Positions 2,125 to 44,661 of a stretch of DNA of 64,000 bases are shown one piece after another (the stretch's first letter is position 1; each line of letters opens with the position of its first letter). A program made the translations under genes and the position numbers. Location: NCBI GenBank assembly GCA_020628915.1, contig JAHDEI010000003.1, forward strand, positions 1,859 through 65,858, written 5' to 3'. This DNA is from Minisyncoccota bacterium (GTDB lineage: Bacteria > Patescibacteriota > Minisyncoccia > Phycocordibacterales > GCA-2747955). The notes below the pieces were generated by a model, which ran no database searches, was not told the DNA's origin, and saw nothing but the letters and a program-made list of their open reading frames with translations.

Positions 2125-2721
2125 ATGACAAACAGTGTACCAGAACATTTAGAAATCACTTCTGAGACAACTGATGTGGATTTAGTAGACCTTTCATTGA
2201 AGGACCCGCATTACTTTGGTTTCATCATTGATCGTTACGAATCAAAACTTCATGGGTACATGAAGTCTATTTCGGGTGCTCCATTTGATGACAGAGAAGA
2301 CCTTTTACAAGAGGTGTTTGTTTCTGTCTATCAAAATCTGCATGGCTACAACAGTTCAATTAAATTTTCATCTTGGATTTATCGAATTGCACATAACAAA
2401 ACCGTTTCTTGGTGGCGAAAGAATAAGAAAGGAAAGGACACCATTTCGATTGAAGACAACACGTCTTTTGTAGAGACAGTTTTTAATGAAAACAACGTTG
2501 AGCAAGGCCATGAGGCTGAACATATCAGATTGGGGACCGAATATGCACTTGGTCGTATGAAGGATCAGTACAGGCAGATTTTGGTGTTGAGGTTCTGGGA
2601 GGGGAAGTCGTATGAAGACATTGCAGATATTACGAATTCTTCTGTCGGGACAGTTGGTACACGTGTTGGTCGTGCAAAGAAACAATTTATTAAATTATTT
2701 AGCGAGTATGAGCAAACTTAA
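2125..2721 (+). CDS. ECF-type RNA polymerase sigma-70 family factor (copy 1).
   Basis: Region 2 shows IIDRYESKLHGYMKSI...FSSWIYRIAHNKTVSWWRK. Region 4 shows a helix-turn-helix SYEDIADITNSSVGTVGTRVGRAKKQF. Confidence 0.8.
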   Translation: MTNSVPEHLEITSETTDVDLVDLSLKDPHYFGFIIDRYESKLHGYMKSISGAPFDDREDLLQEVFVSVYQNLHGYNSSIKFSSWIYRIAHNKTVSWWRKNKKGKDTISIEDNTSFVETVFNENNVEQGHEAEHIRLGTEYALGRMKDQYRQILVLRFWEGKSYEDIADITNSSVGTVGTRVGRAKKQFIKLFSEYEQT

Positions 2722-3370
2722 ACACAAAGTCCTCGAGGACATTAAAGAAAAGAACATTACTCCAACATCCAAGTTCTATTTCGTTTCCAAAACGTATTTT
2801 TTCTGGCTGTTGTTTGTTAGTTCAATAATTATTGGGGCGATTGCTTTTTCTACAATTTTGTTTCAGTTGGTTATTGAAACAAATGTTTGGAAAGACCTGG
2901 CCACTTTTCATCGCCCCAGTCTTTTTGTCGAAGCAGTACCTTTGTTTTGGCTTGCTCTTGTTTCTTTGTTTACTATTTCAGCTTGGTATAACTTTAAGAA
3001 TATTCCAGGCACTCATCGAACCGAAAATGCGATCATTGTTCTTGCTTCTATTTTATTTTCACTTTTGTTTGGTTTATTGTTGTTCAAGGTTGGTACCGCA
3101 GAAAAATTGGAATACATTATGAGAGAAAATTTTAGTACATACCGCCAAGCAGTTGAACGTAATATGGAGAGAAAAGCAGAGTTTCTTATGCAAAGAGACA
3201 TTTCTCCACGAGAAATTATGTTGAAACGAGAAGAGCTCAGGACTCTTTGTCTTAATCAAGGCAGAGACGATTGTTTTGTCTCGATCGATGATCTTACAGA
3301 TGAACAAGTTATATCTGCAACAACTACAAAAGAAGTGAAAGAAATTGGGGTAATCGAAGGTAATAACTAG
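2708..3370 (+). CDS. Membrane protein, a putative anti-sigma or sigma-partner protein (copy 1).
   Basis: The ATG at 2708 overlaps the sigma-factor stop by 14 nt. The track ORF 2612.. is an out-of-frame upstream extension. The protein has 3-4 predicted TM helices (FFWLLFVSSIIIGAIAF..., LFWLALVSLFTISAWYNF). It is paralogous to the product of 3969..4541. Confidence 0.5.
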   Translation: MSKLKHKVLEDIKEKNITPTSKFYFVSKTYFFWLLFVSSIIIGAIAFSTILFQLVIETNVWKDLATFHRPSLFVEAVPLFWLALVSLFTISAWYNFKNIPGTHRTENAIIVLASILFSLLFGLLLFKVGTAEKLEYIMRENFSTYRQAVERNMERKAEFLMQRDISPREIMLKREELRTLCLNQGRDDCFVSIDDLTDEQVISATTTKEVKEIGVIEGNN

Positions 3371-3372
3371 TA

Positions 3373-3966
3373 ATGGAGCAAAACGCCCCACAGTTATCTG
3401 ATGAACAAATCATGTCACGCATCACGGCGGAGCCTGATTTATATGGAATTATTATTGATCGATATACAGATAAATTATCTCGTTATATCAAAAGAGTCTC
3501 GGGGCTTGTTGGTGACGAACTAGACGACGTACTACAGGATGTATTCGTCCGCGCATATCAAAAACATACCTCGTTTGACCCAAGCCTTTCTTTTAATTCT
3601 TGGATTTATCGGATTTGTCACAATACAACCATAAATTATTGGAAGAAAAACCGTAGATACAAAGAAGGAGTTTCGTTTGATGAAGAAACCTACACTAAGT
3701 CTGGCTTTCTAGATCATGTGTTGGCGGACGATACAACGTTTGAGGGGATTATGAGAGACGCTGATATTGCGATAATCCGAGATGCGTTGGGGGGCATCAA
3801 AGAAAAGTATCGATCGATTCTGGTCCTTAGATTTTTTGAAGAATTAGACTATGGGCAGATATCAGATGTTCTCAAGATTCCACCTGGAACTGTCGCAACC
3901 AATATTCATCGCGCCAAGAAGGCATTAGCCAAGGAAGTAACATTACTAGAACAACCTAAAAAATAA
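3373..3966 (+). CDS. ECF-type RNA polymerase sigma-70 family factor (copy 2, paralog of 2125..2721).
   Basis: IIDRYTDKLSRYIKRVSG...FNSWIYRICHNTTINYWKKNRR...LDYGQISDVLKIPPGTVATNIHRAKKAL. Confidence 0.8.
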   Translation: MEQNAPQLSDEQIMSRITAEPDLYGIIIDRYTDKLSRYIKRVSGLVGDELDDVLQDVFVRAYQKHTSFDPSLSFNSWIYRICHNTTINYWKKNRRYKEGVSFDEETYTKSGFLDHVLADDTTFEGIMRDADIAIIRDALGGIKEKYRSILVLRFFEELDYGQISDVLKIPPGTVATNIHRAKKALAKEVTLLEQPKK

Positions 3967-3968
3967 CC

Positions 3969-4541
3969 ATGAAAGATTTTAAAGACAACATCATACAAGG
4001 AATCAAATCAGGAGAGATACGTCCAGAATCTCGTATGCGTTTTTTGGCACATGATTATTTCTTTTGGATTTTGACGGGGATTTCGGTTGTATTGGGTGGG
4101 GTCGCAACCGCATCAATTATTTACAAGGTTGTTGTGGAACAAGTTAGGCCACTTCGTGGAATAGGCGGCGCAGAAGCAGTCCCGGTGTTCTTTCAAACCG
4201 CACCGTACATTTGGATACTTGTACTGTTGGTTTTGGTATTGGCAGCTTGGTTTAATTATAAAAAGACATCAAAATCCTATAGACGACATAACGGATTAAT
4301 TATTGCTGGGGTAGTTATATTATCGCTTTTATTCGGGATTGGTTTATTTGCGGCAGGAGCAGGAGCAAAGGTGGATGACCAAATGAGAAAGCGAGTCCCA
4401 GTATTTAAAAAAGAAATGGAACGAAGAGAAAAAATCAGAGATCGATTTATCCAAGAAAGACGCGAGCGACTACAAAATCGTACTGACCAAAATCGACCAC
4501 CTAGGCCGTATCCATTTGCCCCACAAGAGAGGGTTAGGTAA
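3969..4541 (+). CDS. Membrane protein, a putative anti-sigma or sigma-partner protein (copy 2).
   Basis: It starts 3 nt after the sigma-factor stop. The TM helix YFFWILTGISVVLGGVATASIIYKVV resembles YFFWLLFVSSIIIGAIAFSTILFQLV in copy 1. The C-terminus is basic. Confidence 0.5.
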   Translation: MKDFKDNIIQGIKSGEIRPESRMRFLAHDYFFWILTGISVVLGGVATASIIYKVVVEQVRPLRGIGGAEAVPVFFQTAPYIWILVLLVLVLAAWFNYKKTSKSYRRHNGLIIAGVVILSLLFGIGLFAAGAGAKVDDQMRKRVPVFKKEMERREKIRDRFIQERRERLQNRTDQNRPPRPYPFAPQERVR

Positions 4542-4574: not shown

Positions 4575-4617
4575 AAAAATAGCATTGTGCTTTTATTTTG
4601 TTCAAGAGGAGAAAAAA

Positions 4618-5610
4618 ATGAACAGATATGGAAATCAATTTGGTTCACAGCCCGAGCCGTCAATATGGGACAGTTTACTATCAAGCGCACCGCTCGTGGT
4701 GGGACTCGTTATTCTTTTGCTGTGGTTGTCTACCACTATCGTTATCACTCGCGGAATGCGAGCAAAAATCGTTGAAATACTAGGCCAGCCTGAAAAGAAG
4801 GCTCGCCTATCAGGTCTCAGTTTCAAACTGCCGTTTCCGTTTGCACGAGTTGTTGGAAATGTGAATCTTCAGCTTTGTGAAATCGGATCAGACGTGAAGG
4901 CCAAAACCAAAGACAACGCCTTCTTGACGTTGCCGGTTAAGGTTCAATACCGAGCAACGCGAACAGCGGAAGGTGCCTTATTGGCCCACTACGAACTTGA
5001 TGATCCAGAATCACAGATTGTCAATTACGTTTTGAACAATGTTTCTTCTACGGTCCCCAAAATGGATATGGAAACGCTGTTTCAGCAACGCGAACAGATC
5101 GAAACGGAAGTCCTGGGCTCTCTACAAGAGAAATTTGGAAAATCCGGGTATTCAATCGAAAATGTTTTGGTTGATGAGCCAGATCCTTCGGAGGAAGTCA
5201 AAAAGTCATTCAATGACGTAATTGCGTCAAAACGCGCAAAAGAAGCCGCTCAGAACATTGCTGATGCTGAAAAGATCAGACTTGTTGGGATAGCGAAAGC
5301 TGAAAAGGAGTCAAAAAAGCTCCAAGGTGAAGGCCTCGCAGATATGCGCAAGGCGATCGCGACTGGCATGGACGTCTCCATGGAGACGCTTATGAAGTCG
5401 GGCATCTCCAAAACAGAAGCCTTGGTGCTTCTAATGCACACGAACCACTTGGACACACTTGGTTCAGCTGCTGCAGGAGGGAACATGATCATTACAGATA
5501 TGGGTGCCGGAGCACTCGGAACGGATGATATTTTCGCCGCCACAGCTGCTGCCATGAAGGCGACACGTCAGGACGGTGGAGCATCCTCTAGCTCTGATAC
5601 AGAAACCTAA
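4618..5610 (+). CDS. SPFH/band-7 (stomatin, prohibitin, HflC/K-like) membrane protein.
   Basis: One N-terminal TM helix, then an SPFH-like domain (IVITRGMRAKIVEILGQPEKKARLSGLSFKLPFPF...) and a coiled-coil A/E/K-rich tail. Start chosen at the RBS-preceded ATG at 4618 (MNRYGNQ). The track ORF 4585.. is an upstream extension. Confidence 0.7.
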   Translation: MNRYGNQFGSQPEPSIWDSLLSSAPLVVGLVILLLWLSTTIVITRGMRAKIVEILGQPEKKARLSGLSFKLPFPFARVVGNVNLQLCEIGSDVKAKTKDNAFLTLPVKVQYRATRTAEGALLAHYELDDPESQIVNYVLNNVSSTVPKMDMETLFQQREQIETEVLGSLQEKFGKSGYSIENVLVDEPDPSEEVKKSFNDVIASKRAKEAAQNIADAEKIRLVGIAKAEKESKKLQGEGLADMRKAIATGMDVSMETLMKSGISKTEALVLLMHTNHLDTLGSAAAGGNMIITDMGAGALGTDDIFAATAAAMKATRQDGGASSSSDTET

Positions 5611-5617
5611 AATTTTG

Positions 5618-5649
5618 ACCGCGCCTTATTTGGCGCGGTTTTTCTTTTT
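5618..5649 (+). terminator. Rho-independent terminator after the SPFH gene.
   Basis: Stem accgcgcc-ttattt-ggcgcggt followed by a T-tract. Confidence 0.7.
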
Positions 5650-5650
5650 C

Positions 5651-5680
5651 AAAAAAGCTGCCTATACGGCAGCTTTTACT
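5651..5680. terminator. Second hairpin with A-tract and T-tract flanks. It acts as a terminator for the convergent minus-strand TIR-like gene.
   Basis: aaaaaa-gctgcc-tata-cggcagc-tttt. The stop codon of the minus gene lies inside the stem. Confidence 0.6.
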
Positions 5681-6063
5681 TTTTTATTTTGTTGGTCTGT
5701 GTAAACGAAATACGGTTTCATCCAGTCTCGCAGACCAATTCCTGGGTTAAATCGCAGGCCGGGCTTTTGGTCAATTTCTTGTGCGAGATCCAACTCCTTT
5801 TTCATTCCTGCACTTTCGACGCTTCCGGCGATAAAGACAAATAAAATACGATCGCATTTTTTTTGCTTGTCCAGGCAGTAGGCATAAATCTCTTCGTTCG
5901 ACATCCGCTTGGAACGAAAAAATTCTTCGTCATCAAGAGAACAATAATATGACTGCCCTTGGTCTTTCAGTTCTCGGGTAACCCCGTCGATTACCTGCTT
6001 GCGCAGTCCAGGATGGATGCCACTGTATTGATATGAGATAAACACATCAAATTCTTTTTCCAT
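5662..6063 (-). CDS. Small stand-alone TIR-like domain protein (133 aa).
   Basis: N-terminal FDVFISYQYS, a central acidic loop (SLDDEEFF), and a later CDRILFVFIAGSVESAGMKKELDLAQEI segment. This matches the TIR / TIR-like (DUF1863-type) pattern DVFISY ... S.WC..EL. Confidence 0.5.
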   Translation of the reverse strand: MEKEFDVFISYQYSGIHPGLRKQVIDGVTRELKDQGQSYYCSLDDEEFFRSKRMSNEEIYAYCLDKQKKCDRILFVFIAGSVESAGMKKELDLAQEIDQKPGLRFNPGIGLRDWMKPYFVYTDQQNKKVKAAV

Positions 6064-6197
6064 AAAGAGCCTCCTTTTTCTTCTGAGCCTATCATACCAA
6101 AAGTGAAAGAAATTGCTCTTTCAGCTGTAGTAATACATGTGAAGCAAACCGGTTTGCTCACAATCAATGCAATTAACATTAATTTAAAAATTAAAAC

Positions 6198-6731
6198 ATG
6201 AAACAAACTACTAGAAATATGCTCGCAGGAGGATTGATTGGAGCAACCTTGATGGTTGGGGCTTCGGCATTCGCGGCGATCCCACAAGAGGCAAAAGACG
6301 CTGTAAAGGCTGGAGACTTTGAAGCATTCCAAGCTGCTGTTGAGGGAACAAGAGCAGAGAACTTACCAGAAGAAATTTTTGATTTGAAGGTTGATCTCTA
6401 CGAAGCAAAGCAAGCTGGAGATGAAGATCAAATTGAGTCAATCAAGACTGAATTGAAGGAATACCGATCTGAGAAAAAGGCGGAGCGACAAGCAACCAGA
6501 GAGGCTAGACGTGATGCGGTAGAGTCAGGAGACTATGATGCATTTACTGCACTTGTTCCAGAAGGACGAGATGCGCCTTCTGAAGAGGTATTTGGACTGC
6601 TTGGCGACCTCCACCAGGCACGAGAGGCAGGCGATGATGAAGCAAAAGCAGAAATCAAAGCTGAACTAAAGGAGCTTGGGTTTGAAAAACCACAGCGTAA
6701 GAAAAAGGGTCACAGAGGAGGAAATCAATAA
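6198..6731 (+). CDS. Secreted protein with an internal tandem repeat. Function unknown.
   Basis: Signal peptide MKQTTRNMLAGGLIGATLMVGASAFAA. There are two repeats of about 60 aa (AVKAGDFEAFQAAVEG...IKTELKE and AVESGDYDAFTALVPEG...IKAELKE). The protein is strongly acidic and coiled-coil-like. Confidence 0.55.
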   Translation: MKQTTRNMLAGGLIGATLMVGASAFAAIPQEAKDAVKAGDFEAFQAAVEGTRAENLPEEIFDLKVDLYEAKQAGDEDQIESIKTELKEYRSEKKAERQATREARRDAVESGDYDAFTALVPEGRDAPSEEVFGLLGDLHQAREAGDDEAKAEIKAELKELGFEKPQRKKKGHRGGNQ

Positions 6732-6915: not shown

Positions 6916-7713
6916 TTAGATATTCACCTCAATTGATACAGGGCAATGATCTGATCCATGAATATCATCGTGTATTTGGGCGGTTTTGAGTTTGCCCTTG
7001 AGTGATTCTGAAATGAGAAAATAATCAATGCGCCAGCCGGAATTGTTTTTCCGAGCATTAAATCGGTAGGACCACCATGAATATTTTTCGATGGTGTCTG
7101 GGTGCAAGTACCTGAATGTATCTATGAAACCTTGTGAAACGTAATTTGTGAAACCCTCGCGCTCTTTATCCGTGAAACCTGGATTTCCTGGATTTTTCTC
7201 TGTTGTTCTGTTGTTTTGTGGGTTTTTGAGATCAATTTCTGTGTGGGCAACGTTGAGATCGCCACAGAGAATAACAGGTTTCTTTTTCTCGAGTTTTTTG
7301 AGGTATTTAAGGAACAGTACATCCCACTCTTTGTGCCTATAATCGACACGTGCCAGATCAGGCTTTGAATTCGGAGTGTAGACGTTTACTAGATAATACT
7401 TTTTATATTCAGCGGTAATAACCCGACCTTCGTCATTTGCGAGATCAAGCCCTTTGATTTCATTTGAAATAGAAATTGGTTCTTGTTTTAAAAAAACTGC
7501 AGTTGAAGAATAACCCTTTTTAATTGCAGAATTAAAGTATTGATATCCATGTTTGGGAAATAGTTCCGCAGCAAATCCATTAATTTGTTCTGGCTGCGCC
7601 TTGGTTTCCTGTAGACAGATGATATCTGGGTCTTCAGACAATAAAAAGTCGACGGCTCCGTCTTTATCTTTCCATGCTCTGAATCCGTTCACGTTCCATG
7701 AGATTGCTTTCAT
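6916..7713 (-). CDS. xth: Exodeoxyribonuclease III / AP endonuclease (EEP family).
   Basis: MKAISWNVNGFRA...ICLQETKA...C-terminal SDHCPV. The protein is 265 aa, typical of ExoIII. Confidence 0.85.
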   Translation of the reverse strand: MKAISWNVNGFRAWKDKDGAVDFLLSEDPDIICLQETKAQPEQINGFAAELFPKHGYQYFNSAIKKGYSSTAVFLKQEPISISNEIKGLDLANDEGRVITAEYKKYYLVNVYTPNSKPDLARVDYRHKEWDVLFLKYLKKLEKKKPVILCGDLNVAHTEIDLKNPQNNRTTEKNPGNPGFTDKEREGFTNYVSQGFIDTFRYLHPDTIEKYSWWSYRFNARKNNSGWRIDYFLISESLKGKLKTAQIHDDIHGSDHCPVSIEVNI

Positions 7714-10974: not shown

Positions 10975-12099
10975 ATGAAGAATCTTACTATAGCTTCAAA
11001 ATCAGAAAGCAAGAGTATCATCAATAACGATGGAATTCTTGTTGGCGAGATTATTCTCGATTATCGAGCACAAACCAAAACAGTGCTTGTGTGCGGCCCT
11101 GCTTCGACCGAAGAGCGATTAGCAATCTTGCGATTAGCGACCTCACATGCTTGTCAGTATTTAGTGGATCGTCAAACCTTTGCGTTTGGGGGTCTTATTA
11201 CTGTTAATCATGCAGATCGGTCTTTAACCCGTGCAGATTCAGAGCGTCTGATGGACTTCGCAAGAATTCCACCTCAGATTGCTTCTGCAAGCGAGGAAGT
11301 GCTCATCCAGCAGCTTTCTGAATTTTCGATTAAGGTATTGGATTTAGTGCATGAGTCATTTGTTGACGCAATGAATGAGATTTTTATATCTCAGCCTGGT
11401 TGTCAATGGGAGCTTCTTAATAAAGGAACCTGGCGAAATGATTTAGTGCATGTGAAATTAACTGCTCCTAAATCTCAAAAGTTTACATTTTGGACCGCTG
11501 CTGATAAGCCACGACCCGAAGGAGCGTTTGACCTGCATCTTGTTCCAGATTATCATCCAGTGATGAAGGACAAAGAAAGTTCGCATATGATTAATGGAGC
11601 CACTAATGCTCTCATTAGGTCAGATGTGATCGACTCAGTCTATGCCCCTGATGATTCAAGAACATCAGATGAATCTTTTGGCACGACCTGGAATCATGTT
11701 GAACATCCTTTTTATGCAACTGGAAAAACTTTTGAACTAACGGTTGATACGAGCCATGCTCGGACACAGTCAGGGATAGAAGAGCTTCAAATATTTCTGG
11801 CTTCAGTGTTAGGCGGAGATTCCTATGTTTGTGTTTCTGGCGGTTTCCGTGCTCCTATGAAGTGTGCACATAATCGTTTGTTAGAGATAGGTCGCCTTAA
11901 TGATTCACCTTGGCCGCAGGCCTCTCGTGATCATCGCAAAGGGCATGTTGCACGCGGCTCTGAAGAAAAGTGTGTCTGGGAATACCGCACCTTACAAGAA
12001 GAAGGAGCCCTTGATAAAGCCTATGTTCCAGATTGGTTTTTAAAAGAGGACTGGCTTGGAATATACGAAACCGCAGAAGTTCAACCTGGACTTTTTTAG
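10975..12099 (+). CDS. Hypothetical protein (375 aa).
   Basis: A TATAAT -10 element at 10932-10937 and an AGGAAAGAAG ribosome-binding site before the ATG at 10975. The track start 10918 is upstream of the promoter. No motif I recognise. Confidence 0.5.
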   Translation: MKNLTIASKSESKSIINNDGILVGEIILDYRAQTKTVLVCGPASTEERLAILRLATSHACQYLVDRQTFAFGGLITVNHADRSLTRADSERLMDFARIPPQIASASEEVLIQQLSEFSIKVLDLVHESFVDAMNEIFISQPGCQWELLNKGTWRNDLVHVKLTAPKSQKFTFWTAADKPRPEGAFDLHLVPDYHPVMKDKESSHMINGATNALIRSDVIDSVYAPDDSRTSDESFGTTWNHVEHPFYATGKTFELTVDTSHARTQSGIEELQIFLASVLGGDSYVCVSGGFRAPMKCAHNRLLEIGRLNDSPWPQASRDHRKGHVARGSEEKCVWEYRTLQEEGALDKAYVPDWFLKEDWLGIYETAEVQPGLF

Positions 12100-12106
12100 C
12101 GTATTT

Positions 12107-12141
12107 AGCTCGACATGCAACTTGTGTGTCGAGCTTTTTTG
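12107..12141 (+). terminator. Rho-independent terminator.
   Basis: agctcgaca-tgcaacttgtg-tgtcgagct-ttttt. Confidence 0.6.
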
Positions 12142-12155
12142 TTACAATCACAATC

Positions 12156-12959
12156 ATGAAAAAGAAAGCAGCATTGGTTTTGTCTGGCGGAGTCTCACTC
12201 GGGCTAGCACATTTAGGGGTAGTAAAAGTTTTGCAAGATGCAGAATATGAATTTGATGCCATTTACGGTGTGTCCGCTGGGTCAATCGTTGGGGCGGGTA
12301 TCGCCGCTGGAATGAATACAGATGAGATCTATGATGCGTATATTAATGCAGACTTTGTCGGATTTGGAAAAGACGTCTCAAAGATGAACACCGGACTGTT
12401 GCGAGGCGAGAGAATCAGAAACTATTTTAATGAAGTCTTTGAAAATAAAACTATTGACCAGTTACAGGTACGCTTTGTTGCAGGGGCAACGGATTTTGAC
12501 CGAGGAGAATTTATCACAATTGAAAAAGGGTTGGTGGGGGATGCACTGCGATGTTCCAGTGGACTACCCATGATCTTTGAGCCTTTTTTTCATCCTGAAT
12601 ACAACAAATATCTTGCAGACGGCGGGCTTACACAAAATCTACCTCTCAAGCAGGCTGTAGTAGAATACAAAGGAGACACCATTATCGCCGTGAATGTACA
12701 TTCACTGGACCCTCTGCCAAAAGATTTTCATAAAAAGAAATTATGGGGACTCAAAAAAGACGTAGTGAAATATCTTCTTCATTCTTTTAACATCATGATG
12801 AATAGCCAGTGGATTGATATCACTGATCCACGCGTCCAATTAATTGAGCCAGATTTGTCTCAATTTAATTTTTTGGCAATCAGAGAAAAAACCATGAAAG
12901 AAATTATTGAAAAAGGAGAAAAGTCTGCACTTGAACACTTAGCTAAATTAGAAAATTAA
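12156..12959 (+). CDS. Patatin-like phospholipase.
   Basis: Oxyanion GGVSLGLAHLGVVKVL and the serine lipase motif GVSAGSIVGA (GxSxG), with a later DGG catalytic Asp motif (LADGGLTQN). The track ORF 12033.. is an upstream extension overlapping the terminator. Confidence 0.75.
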   Translation: MKKKAALVLSGGVSLGLAHLGVVKVLQDAEYEFDAIYGVSAGSIVGAGIAAGMNTDEIYDAYINADFVGFGKDVSKMNTGLLRGERIRNYFNEVFENKTIDQLQVRFVAGATDFDRGEFITIEKGLVGDALRCSSGLPMIFEPFFHPEYNKYLADGGLTQNLPLKQAVVEYKGDTIIAVNVHSLDPLPKDFHKKKLWGLKKDVVKYLLHSFNIMMNSQWIDITDPRVQLIEPDLSQFNFLAIREKTMKEIIEKGEKSALEHLAKLEN

Positions 12960-31015: not shown

Positions 31016-33829
31016 ATGCCTCCGGGAGCTCCAAAATTTAACAAAGCAGAACGAATCAATACACCAAAACAAGAATTAGAGGTGTTTAAACAATCTGTCC
31101 AAGATACGATGGATCAAGTGTACGGACGCTCTTTTGAGGAGACTCCGGCGTCTATTCAACACGATGTTGTTAAAAAGGCATTGGACGAACACTTTGATGC
31201 GTTTATAGATAACAAATTCTCTAATCCATTTGATAAGCAAAAGCAGGCTGAAAAAATTGTTCTTGAGCTAACTCCAGATGAAGATGATGACAAGATGGGA
31301 GAACTTTTGGGATTAATTCATGAGGTAGGAATTATCTCAACACTCAAGGTAATCGAAAAGACTGCGTCATTTCATGTCAAAGATGACCTGCACAGAATGC
31401 TAGTTCAATACATTAAAGAAGGGTATCCAGTCAAAGACCTTTCTGAAAAATCTCCTATCACACCAGGGCTCAACATGACGTTGTTCGAGATTTATCTTCC
31501 TGAAAAAGAACAAGATCCTGAAGAAAAAAAGAAGGACCTGAAAACCCTCCTTTCTTCGATGGAGCAGTTTTACGCTGGGATGCGTTCGGTTGCTGATGCG
31601 AAACATCCTGACAACTATCTCTCTGTAGAGGTTGCCTTGCCGCAGGGTCGTGACGAAATTGTTTTTTATTGTGCTGTGCCTGACTCAAAGGTGTCTATTT
31701 TGCGCAGTCAACTGATTGCTATTTTCCCAGGAATCAAAATCATCGAATCAACAGATGACTATAATATTTTTAATAAAAAAGAACACATTGCCGCATCCGT
31801 TGCTGAATTAAAAAAAGTGGACCTGCTGCCAATCAAATTGTACGAAGAATTTGATTATGATCCACTTAACATTATCTTAGAGTCGTTTTCTTCGTTGCAG
31901 CGTGAAGAAGGGGCATCGGTGCAGATCATGCTTTCCCCTGATGAAGAACAAATCTCAGATCGAATTTACAAAGCAATCGAACGGCTAGAAAAGGGTGAGC
32001 CTATCGAAGACGCACTGGTACTCAAAGATTCAATGTTCCGTGGTTTTTCAAAGGCGATGTCTGGTGCATTTGATAACAGATCAAAAGAACAAAAAGAAAA
32101 AGACGAAATCAAGAAAAAAGAACTAGCTGGCCGGACCGACAGGCGCGAATTAATTGACGCACTGCAGAAGAAAAATTCAGGATCACTATTTAGAACAAAC
32201 GTGCGGATTATCACAGCGGGTAATTCAGATGCCCACGCAGAAGCAATCCTTTCCGGGATCGAATCGTCATTTAATCAGTTCGAAAACACAACAGGAAACC
32301 GATTTGTATTTGATAGAAAGAAAAAAGGAGAGTTGCGTCGAGTGATCCAAAACTTTACGTTCCGTGTGTTTAATAAGCGTGATCTGATGCATCTCAACAC
32401 AAGAGAGCTGACTACTATGCTTCACTTCCATGCGAAACCAGAATCAGGGTCTGATCTTCTTAAGACCTCGAATTCATCTAGTTCAGGTGCTTCGGTTAAA
32501 ACCATTTCTCAATCAACTGATACTCATGGGCTGGTTACTCCTGGAAAAATTTTGTTGGGAATCAACAAGCACCAAGGATCCGAGAACAGAATTTTTATGA
32601 ACGCCAAGGATCGTGTCAGGCATATGTACATCATCGGACAAACTGGTACAGGTAAGTCTGGTCTTTTGCAGAACATGGTGATCCAAGACATTAAAAATGG
32701 AGACGGGTGTTGCTTCATCGACCCCCATGGATCTGATGTCCAAGATATTTTGGCAAATATTCCTCCTGAACGGTATGAAGACGTGATTTACTTTGATCCT
32801 GCAGATCTTGACCGACCAATGGGCATGAATATGCTCGAGTACGACCCAGCATACCCAGAACAAAAGACGTTTGTTGTAAACGAACTCCTTTCGATCTTCA
32901 GGAAACTGTATGGCTCAGTTCCAGAATCTATGGGTCCAGCATTTGAGCAATATTTCCGAAACGCAACAATGCTTGTGATGGAGGATCCAGCATCTGGAAA
33001 TACCATGTTCGAAATTTCTCGCGTACTGTCTGATCCTGCATTCCGTGCACTCAAATTGGCTCGATGTAACAACATGGTTGTGAAACAATTTTGGGAGAAA
33101 ATTGCGACTCAGGCAGGGGGGGACGCTGCTTTGGAAAATATTGTTCCGTACATCACTAACAAATTTGATGTATTTATGGCGAATGATTTTATGCGACCAA
33201 TTATCGCGCAAGAGCAATCGGCGTTTAATTTCCGCGATATTATGGACAATAAAAAGATCTTGTTGGTGAACCTTTCAAAGGGTCGATTAGGCGAGCTAAA
33301 CTCGAATATGATTGGTCTGATCATTGTTGGAAAGATTTTGATGGCAGCGCTGTCTCGGGTAACCTCGCTTGACCAAGACCTGCCACCGTTCTATTTATAT
33401 ATTGATGAGTTCCAAAACATTACAACCGATTCGATTTCTCAGATTCTGTCTGAAGCTCGGAAATACGGACTCTCGCTCAACGTTGCTCACCAGTTTATTA
33501 AACAGTTGGACGAAGGAATTCGGGATTCTGTATTTGGTAACGTTGGATCAATGGCGTCATTCCGTATCTCAGCCGAAGATGCAGAATTTATGGAAAAATA
33601 TTTTGCACCAGCATTCACAGCAAAAGATATTATGAATATCGAGAACTTTAACGCGTATGTAAAAATGCTTGTTAACGGGTCTCCTGAGAAACCATTTAAT
33701 ATCGCAACCATCGCACCACCACAAGGTAACCCAGCAATTCGTGACGAGATCAAGAAACTCTCAGCTCTCAAATATGGAAAACCACGCGCAGAAATTGAAG
33801 CACTGGTCCAAAAGAAATTTATGCTTTAA
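31016..33829 (+). CDS. Large ATPase of the TraD/TraG/VirD4 coupling-protein type (TrwB_AAD_bind / AAA_10-like), with a unique N-terminal domain of about 500 aa.
   Basis: Walker A MYIIGQTGTGKSGLLQNM...CCFIDPHGSD, Walker B LYIDEFQNI, and a TraG-D_C-like segment SEARKYGLSLNVAHQFIKQLDEGIRDSVFGNVGSMASFRIS. The protein is 937 aa. Confidence 0.55.
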   Translation: MPPGAPKFNKAERINTPKQELEVFKQSVQDTMDQVYGRSFEETPASIQHDVVKKALDEHFDAFIDNKFSNPFDKQKQAEKIVLELTPDEDDDKMGELLGLIHEVGIISTLKVIEKTASFHVKDDLHRMLVQYIKEGYPVKDLSEKSPITPGLNMTLFEIYLPEKEQDPEEKKKDLKTLLSSMEQFYAGMRSVADAKHPDNYLSVEVALPQGRDEIVFYCAVPDSKVSILRSQLIAIFPGIKIIESTDDYNIFNKKEHIAASVAELKKVDLLPIKLYEEFDYDPLNIILESFSSLQREEGASVQIMLSPDEEQISDRIYKAIERLEKGEPIEDALVLKDSMFRGFSKAMSGAFDNRSKEQKEKDEIKKKELAGRTDRRELIDALQKKNSGSLFRTNVRIITAGNSDAHAEAILSGIESSFNQFENTTGNRFVFDRKKKGELRRVIQNFTFRVFNKRDLMHLNTRELTTMLHFHAKPESGSDLLKTSNSSSSGASVKTISQSTDTHGLVTPGKILLGINKHQGSENRIFMNAKDRVRHMYIIGQTGTGKSGLLQNMVIQDIKNGDGCCFIDPHGSDVQDILANIPPERYEDVIYFDPADLDRPMGMNMLEYDPAYPEQKTFVVNELLSIFRKLYGSVPESMGPAFEQYFRNATMLVMEDPASGNTMFEISRVLSDPAFRALKLARCNNMVVKQFWEKIATQAGGDAALENIVPYITNKFDVFMANDFMRPIIAQEQSAFNFRDIMDNKKILLVNLSKGRLGELNSNMIGLIIVGKILMAALSRVTSLDQDLPPFYLYIDEFQNITTDSISQILSEARKYGLSLNVAHQFIKQLDEGIRDSVFGNVGSMASFRISAEDAEFMEKYFAPAFTAKDIMNIENFNAYVKMLVNGSPEKPFNIATIAPPQGNPAIRDEIKKLSALKYGKPRAEIEALVQKKFML

Positions 33830-33866
33830 GATAGTCTTCCAAAAGGGCTATTTTATTATATAAGTT

Positions 33867-33896
33867 TGACGATACGTCAATAAAATTATATTATGC
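33867..33896 (+). promoter_or_regulatory. Sigma-70-like promoter for the 565-aa orphan gene.
   Basis: TTGACG, a 17-nt spacer, then TATTAT. A CAAGGAGAATAGA ribosome-binding site precedes the ATG at 33928. Confidence 0.45.
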
Positions 33897-33927
33897 GTTA
33901 AGCTTAGATCATTACAAGGAGAATAGA

Positions 33928-35625
33928 ATGACACAAAGTATTCCAAGAGCGCTCGCATTTCATCACCAAGGTGGCGTAATGGAGCAGTTCAGGGTCGCCA
34001 AGAAATTTGGTGGACCAAACGGACGTGTAGCTACTGTTGAAGACATAGTTGATGCACGAATTGCTACTAAAGACCGGTGGGGTTTCCCATGGACAGGTAC
34101 ATTCGTTACTGGGTCACGCGTATATAGTGGGACTAGTAAAGCCGGTGTTCCTTTGTTGGTATTTGCCCATAAAAAGCAGCCAGAACTTGATTCGTACCAT
34201 GAACTTAATCGTTTAGATTGGGAAAATGATGACGTGGGGACTATTAAAGATTGGGCCATCTCACAAGATAAATTTGAGGACTTGATTAATGGTGTCTATG
34301 GTGATGTACATATTGTCGATCTCTCGACATACAAAAATAATTCTGTAGGTAATTCCGCATCAAATCGTTATAAATTTGCTGAAGCCATGGAAAACCCAAT
34401 TATTTTAGGTTTTCTCGGCAGCAAAGCAAAAGAATTTTTGATGACACTACATCAAATGCAACAATCTTGGCTATCGAGACAAAAGCAGGAAGTGCGGGAT
34501 AGTACCGTTATTATGTGCTCTCGCTTATATGATTTCTATATGCGTCATACTAATGCAGGTGAAAAGTATTTCGCATCTAGTGGATATGCAAAGGTGAGAC
34601 CTTTGACGTTTGAAGATGCAGTATTCTACATACCTGATAATAGACATGGTGAACGAATAAATCGGACGACATACGGTCCTGATTTCGGTTGCGCCACTAG
34701 TAGTGGCATTGATGATCTCATATTCAGTCCGTATTACGTCGTGGGAGTTAAAGGCTCTGATCCGATTACTTCAATCGAGCGGCCATTCATTCAGGTCGTT
34801 GGAAATGTGAAAGAGCAGTGGGAACACTTTGTGGAACCAGTTCCAGAAGGTATAGATATTATTGATACGTATACAGGAGTTCAACCCGATGGTTCCAGAG
34901 ATAGACCTTATTACCTGCCTTTTCGTTGGGGAGGTGGAGCACTTGCTTCGTCTCGGATAACAGAGAATGGTGCTGCATCAAACATTCCAGAGTTTCGCCT
35001 TCTCAAAAAAGAAAGAGTAAAATCTAAAGAGGTGGAGTATTCTTGTTCTAGTCGAGAGTATCAGTACCCTTATGTAGATATGTGGGATGCGTGTGTTAAG
35101 GCCATGCCGGAAGAAGCTAACGCAATGAGCTTTGGAGGATCACGAGGAGGAGGTAGTACTCATGGTGTGAATGCGACCAGTACTATCTTTTGGAATGTTG
35201 AGGTAGAAGAGAATCCCTTTAAATTTCTTATGAAATGTGGAGACCGTTTGTTTACTCAGTATTCAGATGAAGACAAGTTAACAAGTCAACCTTGTCAGCT
35301 TGTTGAAAAGAGTCGAGTGATTAAAAGACGCAAAAGATGGGAAATTCCTGAAGAAATTTATCGCTTGACTGATGGGTGCAGAGATATGTGGCCTGTGTAT
35401 GCATATCTTATGGATCAATCTCCAAAAGAAGCAAATTCAGTTTACATTGAAGATAAGTCGGTAGGTTGGGTTGAAAAAAAGAGCAGAAATGTAATGAAAG
35501 TTACAGTCGCTTATTATTATTCAATTTACGGTGACGTTTATTTTCGTCCATTCTCTGTTATTCGTGAAGATGCTGATTGGCAGCTCGAGAGACGCGCGCA
35601 AGCAGGGCTACTCGAAGCAGCTTAG
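33928..35625 (+). CDS. Hypothetical protein (565 aa) with no recognisable motif.
   Basis: Own promoter and ribosome-binding site. A strong terminator (aaaccgacact-cgtat-agtgtcggttttt) follows at 35635-35665. Confidence 0.5.
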   Translation: MTQSIPRALAFHHQGGVMEQFRVAKKFGGPNGRVATVEDIVDARIATKDRWGFPWTGTFVTGSRVYSGTSKAGVPLLVFAHKKQPELDSYHELNRLDWENDDVGTIKDWAISQDKFEDLINGVYGDVHIVDLSTYKNNSVGNSASNRYKFAEAMENPIILGFLGSKAKEFLMTLHQMQQSWLSRQKQEVRDSTVIMCSRLYDFYMRHTNAGEKYFASSGYAKVRPLTFEDAVFYIPDNRHGERINRTTYGPDFGCATSSGIDDLIFSPYYVVGVKGSDPITSIERPFIQVVGNVKEQWEHFVEPVPEGIDIIDTYTGVQPDGSRDRPYYLPFRWGGGALASSRITENGAASNIPEFRLLKKERVKSKEVEYSCSSREYQYPYVDMWDACVKAMPEEANAMSFGGSRGGGSTHGVNATSTIFWNVEVEENPFKFLMKCGDRLFTQYSDEDKLTSQPCQLVEKSRVIKRRKRWEIPEEIYRLTDGCRDMWPVYAYLMDQSPKEANSVYIEDKSVGWVEKKSRNVMKVTVAYYYSIYGDVYFRPFSVIREDADWQLERRAQAGLLEAA

Positions 35626-35733
35626 TTATCTATTAAACCGACACTCGTATAGTGTCGGTTTTTCTTTTATGGGAAAAGTTGGCAGCGTTAATTTTTTGCT
35701 GAATGCTATAATGCTCAAAATTAGAATCTACTT

Positions 35734-37710
35734 ATGAAACTTAATCCCAAGCAGCAAGAGGCAGCATCAATCCTATCCGGCCCCGTTTTGGTATTGGCTG
35801 GTGCCGGCGCAGGAAAAACAAAGACACTAACCGAGCGAATTATTCGCTTGATTGAGTCAGGGGTCATGCCACAACATATTTTGGCGATTACATTTACTAA
35901 TAAGGCGGCTATGGAAATGAAAGATCGGGTACACACTGCAATCAAAAACAATCCCAAACTACAGTTTCCAGTATTTGAAGAAGGCTTTGTCCCATTTGTT
36001 TCTACCTTTCATGCACTCGGGGTAACAATTCTTCGCGAGCAATACAAAGTTTTGGGTGTTTCAAAATATTTTTCAATTTATGACAGACAAGACTCACGTC
36101 GTGCCATCAAAGAGGCGGTGAAGAAAAACGATCTTGATCCAAAGGCGTGGGACACAAAAAAAATTCTTTCATTTATTTCAAAAAACAAAGGGAACGGAAA
36201 GAGGCTGGCAGATATAAACATGGAGGAAGATTCGTCATATCACCGGGATACCATGATTGCCATTTGGCGATCCTACGAAGCGATCAAGAGAGAGGATAAT
36301 GCGTATGATTTTGATGACCTCTTGCTTGAGACGGCGTATTTACTCAGAACAAACGAGCAAGTCAGAGAGCATTATCTGCGTCGGTGGAGCCATATCCACA
36401 TTGATGAATACCAGGATACAAACAAGGTTCAATATCAGATTGTTCGTGCTCTCACCAACAAGGAAACTAACGACATTTTTGCAGTAGGAGACCCAGACCA
36501 GCTGATTTATGGATGGCGAGGGGCAAAGATTTCAAATATTATGCGATTTGAAAAAGACTTTCCGGGAACCGTATCCGTAATCCTCGAGCAAAATTATCGT
36601 TCTACTAAATACATTATTGATGCATCAAACGCGGTTATTGAGAAAAATGAAAATAGGTTTCCTAAAAAGTTGTTTACTGAAAATGATCAAGGAGATTCGG
36701 TTGGAGTATATGCGGCATACGATGCAGCAGAAGAGGCAACATGGATTACTGAGAATATTCAAAATAAAATTAACGAGGGCGTAGATCCGGGTGAGATTGC
36801 GGTTTTGTATCGAGCAAATTTCCAGTCTCGAATTTTGGAAGAAGCATGTCTTAAAAATGATATTCCTTATCAAGTGTTAGGAACAAAATTTTATGATCGA
36901 GCAGAGGTAAAAGATGTTCTCGCCTATGTCCAGGCTGCATTGAGTCCAGATTCATTGATTCACGTAAAGCGTGTGATTAACATGCCAAAGAGGTCGCTTG
37001 GTAAGACTTCAGTTTTGAAAATTTTTGCTGGCAAAGAAGATGAATTAACACCACGAGCAAAAAAATCTCTTGAGCAGTTTAGAGAAATTCTCTCAAACAT
37101 TAAACAATTTATTGATAATGGCTATCCTCCTAGTGAGGTCATCTCACATGTAATTGCAGTTTCTGGGATGGAAAAAATGTTCCGCGACTCTAAAAAGGAG
37201 GAAGACCTCGAGAGGATCGCAAACATGTATGAGCTTTCTGAAGTTGCATCAAAATACGATACGTTTCCTCCAGAAGATGGCCTTATGAGATTTTTAGAGG
37301 AGGTTGCTCTTGCTTCAGACCAGGATTCAAAAGATGATTCCAAGCCAATGGTCAAACTGATGACCATTCATGCTGCCAAAGGACTTGAGTTTGATACTGT
37401 TTTTGTTTCAGGATGTGAAGAATCTTTATTCACGCCGCAACCTGGTTTGGATCAAAAAGCTAGCGATGAAAAAGCCGAAGAAGAAAGGAGGCTTTTCTAC
37501 GTAGCAATGACACGAGCAAAAAACAAATTATATTTGTCGTGGGCGTCAGTCCGTATGGTATATGGATCTCAAGAAGTCAATTTAATTTCATCATTTATTT
37601 TAGATATTCCAGAAGAATGTTTAAGTGAAGAAAACGTTGGATTCTCATTTACCAATAATCGACTGATGGGTGACGATGACGAAGAGGCGATCATCTATCT
37701 TGATTTTTAA
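35734..37710 (+). CDS. UvrD/PcrA/Rep-family ATP-dependent DNA helicase.
   Basis: Motif I LVLAGAGAGKTKTLTERI and the ILAITFTNKAAMEM box. DEYQDTN (Walker B / motif II), VGDPDQLIYGWRGA, YRS, and C-terminal TIHAAKGLEFDTVFVSG plus LFYVAMTRAK. Confidence 0.85.
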   Translation: MKLNPKQQEAASILSGPVLVLAGAGAGKTKTLTERIIRLIESGVMPQHILAITFTNKAAMEMKDRVHTAIKNNPKLQFPVFEEGFVPFVSTFHALGVTILREQYKVLGVSKYFSIYDRQDSRRAIKEAVKKNDLDPKAWDTKKILSFISKNKGNGKRLADINMEEDSSYHRDTMIAIWRSYEAIKREDNAYDFDDLLLETAYLLRTNEQVREHYLRRWSHIHIDEYQDTNKVQYQIVRALTNKETNDIFAVGDPDQLIYGWRGAKISNIMRFEKDFPGTVSVILEQNYRSTKYIIDASNAVIEKNENRFPKKLFTENDQGDSVGVYAAYDAAEEATWITENIQNKINEGVDPGEIAVLYRANFQSRILEEACLKNDIPYQVLGTKFYDRAEVKDVLAYVQAALSPDSLIHVKRVINMPKRSLGKTSVLKIFAGKEDELTPRAKKSLEQFREILSNIKQFIDNGYPPSEVISHVIAVSGMEKMFRDSKKEEDLERIANMYELSEVASKYDTFPPEDGLMRFLEEVALASDQDSKDDSKPMVKLMTIHAAKGLEFDTVFVSGCEESLFTPQPGLDQKASDEKAEEERRLFYVAMTRAKNKLYLSWASVRMVYGSQEVNLISSFILDIPEECLSEENVGFSFTNNRLMGDDDEEAIIYLDF

Positions 37711-37762
37711 AAAGAGCCAAGGTATCATTTCGCCTTTGGTTCTTTAAAAACAAGAGGAAAGT

Positions 37763-38194
37763 ATGCCTAAAATGAAAAGAAGTCCGTCTGTGCACGATTC
37801 ATATGCACGTGTACTACGTTACACTTCGAACCATCCTGAATTTGGTGACATGACCCAAATGCAACAGGATAGGCAATTCGTGCCCGGCGGCTATTATTTG
37901 TGTGAGACCTTCAAAGGAGAGCCAGATATGGTTGGCCTTCGTCTCAATCAACATGCGCGCGCACAAATTTTTGCCAGCGAAGACGTTTGTCTCTTCAAAT
38001 CTGGTGAGACTGTAGTATTGAACATCGAGGCAGGCACAGAGCAATCTTTTAGAAAAGGAGAGCAGTACGTGATCAGTGGTTTTAATTACCGTACGGGCCT
38101 TGTTGAGCTTAGAAATAGTGGAGGCGAACGAGGATGGTATCCGTTTACTGGTGTCGTTCTCCCTCAAAAAGAAGTTGCGCAAGAAGTAGCCTAG
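37763..38194 (+). CDS. Hypothetical protein (143 aa).
   Basis: GAGGAAAG ribosome-binding site. A terminator (agctcccc-gcga-gggagctttt) follows at 38197-38226. Confidence 0.45.
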   Translation: MPKMKRSPSVHDSYARVLRYTSNHPEFGDMTQMQQDRQFVPGGYYLCETFKGEPDMVGLRLNQHARAQIFASEDVCLFKSGETVVLNIEAGTEQSFRKGEQYVISGFNYRTGLVELRNSGGERGWYPFTGVVLPQKEVAQEVA

Positions 38195-38520
38195 TAAAAG
38201 CTCCCCGCGAGGGAGCTTTTTAAATTTAAATTTTTTTTTGTATAGTGAATAATAGAACGTTACGGGAGACACGAATGTTTCGTACTTTATTATCCAAAAT
38301 GCGTGCTGCCAATGACCAGGGTGAGTCAAGCGACTCTTATAAAAAAATGACGGTCATTAAAGAGCAACAGTTTGATTTTGAGTTGCCAGTGGGTAGTGTC
38401 GTATATGCGCGTAAAATTAAGGGTGGGTATGATGTTATGGGTTATCAAGAGCCATTCCCATCCTCTTCACTTAAACAATGCCCCTCTTAGGGGTATTTTT
38501 TGTTGGTATAATCGTGACTA

Positions 38521-39331
38521 TATGAAGTACGCAAAAAAGCATTTAGGGCAGAATTTTCTTAAATCAAAGCGAGCAGTTGACGCAATGATTGATGCGGTTG
38601 CTGTACTGCCAGGGGAAACAGTCTTAGAAATTGGTCCAGGTCGCGGAGCACTGACAGGTCCGATCTTAGAAACAGGCGCGCGTGTTGTAGCGATTGAGAA
38701 AGATCCAGAGATGATTCATTTGTTGGAAGAAAAATTTTCGACAGAAATTGCTGGCGGACAATTGGTCATAATAGAAGGAGATGTCCTGCAGGATTCATTA
38801 TCAGATCACGGACTCGTTCATCAGGAATATTCTGTGATCGCAAACATCCCGTATTACATTACGGGGGCAATCATTCGGATGCTTCTTGAGTCAGATAGTC
38901 ACCCTCGTGCAATATCACTTTTGGTCCAAAAAGAAGTTGCTGAACGTATTACGGGAAGAGAGACGAAAAAACAAAAAGAGAGCATTCTGTCACTTTCTGT
39001 TAAAGCGTACGGGACAGCACAATATGTTATGAGCGTTGGTGCCAAATCATTTTCTCCACCGCCGAAAGTTGATTCAGCTATTATTGCGATCAGAGATATC
39101 TCGAAAGAACAATTTGTTCAGTCGGGGGTATCTGAGAATCAATTTTTCTCGCTAGTAAAACAAGGATTCGCTCAAAAAAGAAAAACACTATTAAATAACC
39201 TGAAGCAAGCTGGGTATGACACAGAACCAATAAAGGCATTTTTGTCTGAGCAGAATCTGGATTCAAGAATCCGAGCTGAAGACCTCCAGATAGACCATTG
39301 GTTTTGGTTAGCAAAACATTTAGGAAAATAA
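38521..39331 (+). CDS. rsmA: 16S rRNA (adenine1518/1519-N6)-dimethyltransferase.
   Basis: KKHLGQNFL...SAM-binding motif VLEIGPGRGALT...NIPYYIT. Start at the ATG at 38521, after a TATAAT at 38506. The track ORF 38372.. is an upstream extension. Confidence 0.85.
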
Positions 39332-39333
39332 AA

Positions 39334-39370
39334 AGTCCGCCACCAAAGGGAGCGGACTTATTTTTATCGC
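39334..39370. terminator. Bidirectional terminator between rsmA and the convergent lipoprotein gene.
   Basis: aaaagtccgcc-accaaagggag-cggactt-atttttat. Confidence 0.7.
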
Positions 39371-40597: not shown

Positions 40598-40631
40598 ACG
40601 AAAATTCTAGCACACATGCTACAATTTTTTT

Positions 40632-44660: not shown

Positions 44661-44661
44661 T

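Follow-up and report, generated by a model that had tools for sequence, protein, structure and literature searches.

What does a protein of only 133 amino acids (aa), which begins like a TIR domain and stands alone, do in a host-dependent bacterium? This question is raised by a stretch of 64,000 nucleotides from a Minisyncoccota bacterium (assembly GCA_020628915.1, contig JAHDEI010000003.1, positions 1,859 to 65,858 of the forward strand), which in its full length is referred to as the window. An initial annotation, made from the sequence alone, placed a gene at 5662-6063 with a product that starts MEKEFDVFISY and contains the segment CDRILFVFIAGSVESAGMKKELDLAQEI; the list of open reading frames (ORFs) and the sequence confirm the gene, on the minus strand, and the segment is found in the 133-aa product. 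The product was then described as a TIR-like protein, of the type that occurs in Thoeris and other anti-phage systems. Here, a different reading is favored, with a probability of roughly 0.45, namely that the protein is a glutamate-dependent N-glycosidase that acts on a nucleotide-type substrate, for pool sanitation or salvage. It is favored because of the S-x-G-x-x-x-E motif of the protein, the affinity of its family to nucleoside 2-deoxyribosyltransferases (NDTs) and to the enzymes DNPH1 and MilB, the absence of partner genes, and the coupling of family genes to housekeeping operons.

The ORF is a genuine gene, as is evident from its canonical Shine-Dalgarno sequence, its clusters of homologues and a confident structural model. 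It has an ATG start, a TAG stop and a G+C content of 0.425 (window, 0.414). An exhaustive search with HMMER through 1.84 billion cluster representatives gave 91 matches at E<1e-3, of which 14 have E<1e-10; nearly all are stand-alone proteins of 125-145 aa. Four long matches with multiple stretches (P0015, P0058, P0083 and P0088) were set aside as low-complexity or repeat false positives. A word-indexed homologue search with the single 133-aa protein recovered only the protein itself, scanning it against genome contigs recovered no relative, and an exact-sequence look-up among contigs gave no match. By sequence, no viral relatives were found in IMG/VR or among GenBank phages, and a viral origin was rejected on these grounds; structurally similar viral NDT-like proteins do exist. 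Where neighboring genes or record titles identify the organisms, the family is carried by host-dependent bacteria of the candidate phyla radiation (CPR) and by DPANN archaea. Public records annotate some relatives as 'toll/interleukin-1 receptor domain-containing protein', some as 'nucleoside 2-deoxyribosyltransferase' and others as 'hypothetical'. The family is an uncatalogued, CPR/DPANN-associated branch between the TIR and NDT families.

Two alignments, one of 73 sequences (A1) and one of the 11 closest relatives (A2), are both too diverse for back-translated patterns. In A1, the glutamate at position 90 (E90) is the sole invariant residue (73/73), and it stands at the position expected for the catalytic Glu which the initial annotation considered worth checking. 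G15, C41, S84 and G86 are near-invariant, S84 and G86 each being found in at least 90% of the A1 sequences, and the consensus reads (V/I)F(L/I)SYxFTGED ... VFCS ... SxGMxxELxxA. The members of A2 also have Y60, C63 and a C-terminal DW..PF motif in common.

The AlphaFold2 model built with A1 has a predicted local distance difference test (pLDDT) score of 94.3 and a predicted TM-score (pTM) of 0.88. It consists of a strand (residues 5-11), a helix (18-34), a short strand (39-41), two helices (42-51 and 56-68), a strand (70-77), a helix (85-96), a strand (100-105) and a C-terminal helix (113-132). Both the model and Foldseek give the flavodoxin-like fold of TIR type that had been anticipated. The acidic loop of the initial annotation is recognizable as the stretch DDEEFF (residues 44-49), which the model puts in a helix and not in a loop. 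It has been shown that TIR, DrHyd (NDT/Rcl) and SLOG domains form one clade of Rossmannoid domains, the TDS (TIR-DrHyd(NDT)-SLOG) clade (PMC9503650). The residues by which this clade is recognized are found in the model at S10 and G15 after strand 1 and at S84, G86 and E90 after strand 3; from the secondary structure of the model, the latter three lie in the loop and the first turn of the helix that follow this strand. The loop after strand 1, in the motif DVFISYQYSG, is the nucleotide-contacting loop. Four strands are predicted in the protein, compared with five in the definition of the clade (PMC9503650).

Sequence profiles point away from TIR proper. The 133-aa protein matches TIR_2 (PF13676) at E=0.021 and 15.8 bits, below the curated gathering cut-off of 28. 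The ThsB models of PADLOC match at E=0.003-0.005. There is no match to NCBIfam, to PF05014 at E<=1 or to PF13271. Among the A1 members, PF05014 (Nuc_deoxyrib_tr) matches 45 of 73, at best at 4e-13, followed by PF15891 (Nuc_deoxyri_tr2; 24/73), DUF4406 (19/73) and DUF7768 (14/73). TIR_2, counted at E<=0.1-1, matches 10/73, DUF4062 weakly 10/73 and ThsB_TIR 2/73. Within A2, the NDT-clan models match five, three, three and two members (PF05014 2/11); TIR_2 matches 1/11, which is the query itself, and no A2 member reaches a gathering score. When the family profile is compared with PDB chains, the matches are CtNDT (7e-6), BcmB (2e-3) and LlNDT (5e-3), compared with 0.057 for a TIR chain, BcThsB.

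When the PDB is searched with Foldseek, TIR- and NDT-class structures appear side by side, at E values of about 3e-3 to 1e-1. The TIR matches include SNC1 (3e-3), RUN1, RPS4, ThsB (BcThsB and EcThsB2) and AbTir, with TM-scores relative to the query (TMq) of 0.49-0.57, and also TLR1 and MyD88. The plant TIRs reach a TMq of 0.52-0.54 at a root-mean-square deviation (rmsd) of 6-8 A, and BcThsB superposes at 3.1-3.8 A. The NDT, DNPH1, MilB and BcmB structures have a TMq of 0.50-0.65, typically at 3-4 A: Desulfotalea NDT 0.65, MilB 0.64 at 3.8 A, DNPH1 0.59 at 3.0 A and CtNDT 0.58 at 3.7 A. Since NDT-class structures fit equally well or better, a fold that can be superposed on TIR domains does not discriminate. 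Among viral models, the best matches are a Satyrvirus 'TIR domain-containing protein' (A0A3G5AE05; E=7e-8, TMq 0.76, rmsd 2.4 A) and a Hokovirus 'NDT' (A0A1V0SFM2; E=3e-7, TMq 0.69, rmsd 1.4 A), and the top 50 of the viral library are mostly phage NDT, DUF4406, DUF7768 and CMP-hydrolase proteins. These giant-virus and phage proteins are the closest predicted structures, of similar size and likewise stand-alone, but share only about 20% sequence identity with the 133-aa protein.

The active site can be compared with that of the NDTs (PF05014; CtNDT 8pqp/9emx, LlNDT 1f8x), which have the same fold, share the x-G-x-x-x-E-L-x-x-A motif and give the best profile matches to solved structures. In CtNDT, E88 is the nucleophile, D82 contacts the 5'-OH and D62 lies near C1' and the 2'/3'-OH (PMC10913048). 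The hidden Markov model (HMM) alignment to CtNDT pairs E90 with E88, S84 with D82 and C63 with D62, so that the nucleophile position is kept while both Asp residues of the NDT type are replaced; the LlNDT counterparts are E98 for the nucleophile, D72 for D62 and D92 for D82. The equivalent of Tyr7, which is hydrogen-bonded to the NDT nucleophile, is uncertain: the HMM alignment omits strand 1, and ungapped extrapolation gives Ser10, next to Tyr11, which is Phe or His in several relatives and hence not invariant. The protein is also shorter than the NDTs, with its four predicted strands and C-terminal helix, and it stays below every NDT-clan threshold.

A likeness in spacing is found in DNPH1/Rcl. 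In DNPH1, the hydroxyl of Ser98 and the amide of Gly100 bind the 5'-phosphate upstream of the nucleophile Glu104 (PMC10483697). The spacing S84-x-G86-x-x-x-E90 is identical to Ser98-x-Gly100-x-x-x-Glu104, and from this identity the two motifs would be structurally equivalent. DNPH1/Rcl and the cytidine monophosphate (CMP) N-glycosidases MilB and BcmB, on which the model superposes well, are also small stand-alone enzymes that sanitize or process nucleotide monophosphates; sequence similarity to this group is marginal (E=0.7-2). The 133-aa protein differs in that Asp80 of DNPH1 is replaced by Cys63, Tyr24 has no conserved equivalent and the strand-1 phosphate loop is not reproduced, the family having SYxFTG(ED) and not Y-F-C-G-S-I-R-G-G (the GSIRGG-type loop). 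The TIR motif S-x-W-C-x-x-E, which the initial annotation recognized as DVFISY ... S.WC..EL, is partly kept: DVFISY, Ser84 and the E-L pair are present, whereas the W-C is here G-M, with the Trp replaced by the near-invariant Gly86 and the Cys by Met87. By motif and fold, E90 may correspond to the catalytic Glu of TIR domains.

The protein is thus no bona fide TIR, nor can it be called a classical NDT or DNPH1. It lacks defining features of all three groups and has those of the umbrella TDS clade. With the TIR (PF13676, PF01582) and ThsB (PF08937) families it shares the strand-1 motif, the Ser and the Glu, but it is much smaller, remains below their thresholds, has Gly for Trp and has neither a partner effector nor a defense island in the loci surveyed. 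The DUF4062 proteins (Swarozyc; human TEP1) likewise stand between the TIR and NDT clans and conserve a catalytic Glu; they usually occur in defense islands, fused to sensor or oligomerization modules such as STAND/NACHT domains or helical stalks, unlike the present stand-alone family.

The genomic context gives no sign of a Thoeris system. When essentially every plausible gene of the 64-kb window was scanned with Pfam, no SIR2, SLOG, macro or NUDIX domain and no second TIR/NDT gene came up, and no transmembrane effector of Thoeris type is present there. A systematic context analysis of 60 non-identical loci with 150 neighbors found no ThsA-type partner, bar one LOG-like SLOG gene in a single lineage; a search for such partners had been proposed in the initial annotation. 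PADLOC gave only generic matches on these neighbors. The window itself is ordinary chromosome, with genes for RecA, SSB, EF-P, S6, ClpP, UMP kinase, IMPDH/GMP reductase, KsgA, MiaA, UvrD, a CCA-adding enzyme and two pairs of extracytoplasmic function (ECF) sigma factors and membrane proteins. Its CCA enzyme is 76% identical to that of a 'Ca. Pacebacteria' metagenome-assembled genome, the best match, and 51-59% identical to those of other Paceibacterota and Parcubacteria, which assigns the window to the Patescibacteria/Paceibacteria.

In three syntenic loci (L005, L006 and L008), the family gene is found in the same block with the CCA enzyme, the sigma/membrane-protein pairs, a 177-aa gene and an ExoIII-family gene, the order relative to the 177-aa gene being different in L005. 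The convergent SPFH/band-7 gene that was noted as a possible defense neighbor is indeed present in the window, but it is absent at this position in all three loci; the adjacency therefore carries no functional signal, and a functional linkage was ruled out. In L005 (1096-2543), the ExoIII-family nuclease lies directly upstream of the family gene, co-directional and with a gap of 185 bp, unlike in the window, where the 177-aa gene sits between the two. This layout suggests a possible pairing of an N-glycosidase with an apurinic/apyrimidinic (AP) endonuclease.

The other loci are heterogeneous but also of housekeeping character, of DPANN type or CPR, and include Trm5/TYW2 with a proteasome ATPase, aIF5B with NIP7, RtcB/archease, LepA...AspRS and GluRS. 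The 150 neighbors match 133 Pfam families, with methyltransferases, sigma-70, gyrase and UvrD at the top. The upstream neighbor is co-directional in 40 of 52 cases, and tight coupling with gaps of 1-3 bp recurs, to a ~415-aa protein, which from its Sigma70 domain matches is probably an RpoD-type sigma-70 factor, to a ~242-aa protein and to others. Such gaps to housekeeping genes imply constitutive co-expression.

Several links to other enzymes were seen in a few lineages. In a metagenomic protein of 328 aa (P0037), the family domain (residues 1-126, with a DLPWVRPF motif) is fused to a NUDIX domain; among PDB sequences, this NUDIX domain matches ADP-ribose pyrophosphatases alone, and weakly (E=4e-3). 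In L012 (6895-8423; also L013), three genes follow one another closely in the same direction, with gaps of 16 and 9 bp: a MutT/Ap4A-type NUDIX gene, a LOG-like SLOG gene (Pfam LDcluster4; PDB 6y01 at 4e-15) and the family gene. This arrangement is confined to one lineage. In the lineage of L009 and L161, the family gene has a NUDIX gene at a distance of 5 kb. Three unrelated loci, including an archaeal one, have a patatin-like phospholipase gene at a distance of 4-6 kb (window 12033-12959, L012 1908-2849 and L160 3059-3883); this proximity is probably a coincidence, since no further cases occur in all 82 family-bearing loci. None of the patatin, HAD, NUDIX or LOG-like genes was accepted as a general partner, each being present in only one to three lineages. 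The 141-aa gene upstream in L009 was considered as a tandem paralogue and dismissed for lack of similarity.

Patescibacteria and Paceibacteria rely on nucleotide salvage. In the favored reading, the 133-aa protein would be a small soluble stand-alone enzyme of the TDS class, from a branch closer to the NDT/DNPH1/MilB side than to TIR proper. It would cleave the N-glycosidic bond of a nucleotide-type substrate, with Glu90 acting as the nucleophile on C1' of the (deoxy)ribose and with Ser84 and Gly86 holding the 5'-substituent, probably a phosphate. The products would be a base and a sugar phosphate, and the reaction could serve nucleotide-pool sanitation or salvage in the host-dependent Patescibacteria cell. 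The enzyme would be expressed constitutively and would need no partner protein.

A further property of the gene is its divergence. Between the window and L005, L006 and L008, the family protein is 33-37% identical and its neighbors 48-83%: the CCA enzyme 77%, the ExoIII-family nuclease 83%, the sigma factors 64-67%, the 177-aa protein 64-69% and the membrane protein 48-49%. In blastn, DNA homology between the window and these relatives stops about 30 bp 5' of the start codon (~6091-6099), and the promoter-proximal block is kept. An independent pair of loci, L009 and L161, behaves similarly, with 48% identity for the family protein and 79-97% for its neighbors (LepA 96%, AspRS 97%, the 141-aa protein 92%, a peptidyl-prolyl isomerase 85%, NUDIX 83% and a 297-aa protein 79%). 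Colinearity at the DNA level (about 82%) is lost at the start of the gene and returns near the 3' end over no more than 110 bp. Over the last ~30 residues the two proteins are 100% identical, although their codons show synonymous differences; in the N-terminal ~100 residues the identity is 25-55%. The family gene in this pair is a mosaic with a breakpoint inside the gene.

The replaced part belongs to a variable islet (L009 6156-7836 versus L161 7404-9524) within DNA that is otherwise 77-86% identical, in which the 5' two-thirds of the family gene and the downstream genes have been exchanged. Immediately downstream, L009 has DUF5680 and methyltransferase genes and L161 has a Bro-N gene and one of 258 aa; still further downstream, L161 encodes the toxin ParE. 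Among 41 locus pairs with homologous neighbors, there are 27 in which each shared neighbor is better conserved than the family protein and 31 in which the family protein lies below the median; some tight clades conserve it normally. Episodic replacement of alleles or recombination, or else diversifying selection, would account for this pattern better than uniform drift. A diversity-generating retroelement was weighed as a possible source of the variability and discarded: what varies is the N-terminal two-thirds of the protein, the variability does not appear to be restricted to adenines, and no reverse transcriptase was found in Pfam scans of the window or among the top 25 neighbor families.

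Several of these observations weigh against a nucleotide-processing N-glycosidase. Hypervariable, mosaic genes are commoner among conflict genes than among housekeeping enzymes. The catalytic triad of NDT and DNPH1 is incomplete, as its Asp position is taken by Cys63, which is conserved in the family, and the candidates for its Tyr are Ser10 or the non-invariant Tyr11. The strand-1 loop of the main group (FTGED) is acidic and not obviously phosphate-friendly, and it resembles the FRGED motif of plant TIRs. The best NDT-clan match of the query, to DUF4406, has an E value of only 0.12, and the profile of the closest subfamily has no significant match among PDB sequences. The family gene is missing from all of 80 loci around the CCA-adding-enzyme gene in other Paceibacteria, and its distribution is therefore sporadic; the NUDIX and LOG links are confined to two or three lineages.

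In the main rival reading, the protein would be a TIR-like NADase in conflict or immunity, with its N-terminal two-thirds under phage-driven diversifying selection. This is somewhat unlikely, yet several lines of evidence speak for it. The weak TIR_2 and ThsB matches, the DVFISY and S...E-L motifs and the TIRs among the top Foldseek matches, including the viral protein labeled TIR, all fit a TIR-like enzyme. DUF4062, to which 10 of 73 relatives show their weak similarity, is a TIR-like NADase between the TIR and NDT clans (bioRxiv 10.64898/2026.05.01.722283), and some DrHyd members are NADases (PMC9503650). Two independent syntenic sets show the gene as hypervariable or mosaic, in 27 of 41 locus pairs it is the most divergent gene, the L161 gene borders the islet with Bro-N and, further away, ParE, and the NUDIX fused in P0037 recalls ADP-ribose pyrophosphatases. 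However, the last similarity is itself weak, the TIR profile remains below threshold and is matched by a single one of the 11 closest relatives, and the Trp of TIR domains is a near-invariant Gly. No sensor or effector partner and no defense island were found in the window or in the ~60 loci, and an NADase that is often translationally coupled to essential genes (RpoD, NIP7) would endanger the cell if it were not tightly gated. The hypervariability makes some role in defense possible; the context gives Thoeris no positive support. A ThsB-type signal generator with a ThsA-like effector encoded elsewhere in the genome is the least credible of the explanations weighed here: the PADLOC models and the BcThsB and EcThsB2 fold matches favor it, and against it stand the lack of SIR2, SLOG, macro or transmembrane effector genes in the window, their lack among the 150 homologue neighbors apart from the LOG-like gene of a single lineage, the ThsB_TIR match in only 2 of 73 relatives and a length of 133 aa, below the 164-195 aa of solved ThsB chains.

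A bolder proposal, and a doubtful one, combines enzyme and variability: in the ultra-small CPR bacteria and DPANN archaea, one gene alone would make up a minimal module of immunity or conflict. Its product would be a stand-alone TIR/DrHyd-type N-glycosidase, either an NADase or a hydrolase of phage-specific modified nucleotides. Recombination at a fixed chromosomal site would repeatedly exchange the N-terminal two-thirds, which would face the substrate or trigger, and leave the promoter and the C-terminal segment unchanged. If true, this would be a cassette-like enzyme diversification that is not described for TIR or NDT proteins. A classical nucleoside 2'-deoxyribosyltransferase (EC 2.4.2.6), which would swap bases for deoxynucleoside salvage, would suit a salvage-dependent lineage, the many PF05014 matches and NDT labels among the relatives, and the alignment of the Glu nucleophile with the NDTs as best solved-structure matches; it is improbable given the exchange of both Asp residues (D82 to Ser84, D62 to Cys63), the uncertain Tyr7 equivalent and a query without a PF05014 match. 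Even less probable is a catalytically inert nucleotide-binding or scaffold protein in which the Glu serves ligand binding only. Inactive sensor versions are known in the TDS clade (PMC9503650), and the remainder of the NDT catalytic apparatus is missing here, but inactive versions typically lose the Glu, and E90 is invariant, with S84 and G86 near-invariant, despite extreme divergence elsewhere.

Coordinates of the 133-aa gene, its motifs and its immediate surroundings in the window.
Feature	Position	Strand	Basis
133-aa stand-alone TIR/NDT-superfamily (TDS-clade) protein, coding sequence	5662..6063	-	ORF list, homologues, AlphaFold2 model
Shine-Dalgarno AAGGAGG, 6 nt 5' of ATG	6070..6076	-	read directly from the sequence
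Strand-1 motif DVFISYQYSG, residues 6-15	6019..6048	-	translation, alignments A1-A3, model strand 5-11
Active-site motif S84-A-G86-M-K-K-E90	5794..5814	-	translation, alignment A1
Cys63 codon	5875..5877	-	alignments A2 and A3, CtNDT profile alignment; position computed from the start at 6063
Two terminator-like hairpins, in or beside the 51-bp gap to the SPFH gene	5617..5677	.	terminator scan and sequence
Divergent intergenic region shared with the 177-aa gene	6091..6197	.	blastn and intergenic comparison
SPFH/Band_7 gene, convergent, 51 bp from the 133-aa gene	4585..5610	+	Pfam Band_7, E=4e-23
177-aa predicted secreted protein with internal repeat	6198..6731	+	conserved syntenic neighbor, 62-69% identity in L005, L006 and L008
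ExoIII-family (Exo_endo_phos) nuclease	6916..7713	-	83% identical in L005

The second of the two hairpins overlaps the stop codon of the 133-aa gene. The divergent intergenic region probably contains the promoter; within it, the block TTACTACA...TTTCTTTCACTTT is kept in L006 and L008, unlike the adjoining coding sequence. A perfect palindrome of 16 bp, AGCAAACCGGTTTGCT (6143-6158), is unique in the window, the block lying closer to the family gene; it was rejected as a conserved operator, being absent in L006 and L008. The 177-aa protein carries a signal-like segment at its N-terminus, is internally duplicated (AGDFEAFQAAVEG... / SGDYDAFTALVPEG...) and belongs to no Pfam family.

Other features of the window were also observed. 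Two tandem pairs of ECF-type sigma factors and membrane proteins (2125-4541, plus strand) form a block that is kept in L005 and L006; judged via these two loci, the pairs are paralogous, with ~37-38% identity between the sigma factors and ~25-32% between the membrane proteins, which are possibly anti-sigma factors. The region 31016-49135 contains a VirD4/TraG-like coupling-protein homologue of 937 aa, followed by many large orphan ORFs without a Pfam match, and it also holds two TSP3-repeat proteins and a hammerhead ribozyme. The latter (47735-47789, plus strand) is of type III, scores 51.6 bits against an Rfam gathering score of 48.5 and has a full catalytic core (CUGAUGAG...CGAAAC...GUC) just 3' of an orphan ORF at 47286-47699. 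A tyrosine recombinase (Phage_integrase) is encoded at 54010-55023, and together with the region 31016-49135 it may belong to an integrated element or to a surface or secretion locus.

TIR domains and NDT-like enzymes are now regarded as parts of a single continuum of N-glycosidases, which reaches from immunity to nucleotide metabolism. The present family falls between the two, as it combines TIR-like strand-1 and Ser motifs with an NDT-like Gly-x-x-x-Glu, without the Asp of NDTs or the Trp of TIRs; it escapes curated models, and its public labels are inconsistent. Its conserved flanks and divergent, mosaic coding region are a concrete case of localized diversification of a small enzyme. Both nucleotide economy and phage defense are poorly understood in CPR bacteria and DPANN archaea. 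If the protein is an NADase, TIR-type immunity would be extended to the smallest known cells, and if it is a nucleotide hydrolase, it would supply a missing salvage or sanitation step for CPR and DPANN cells.

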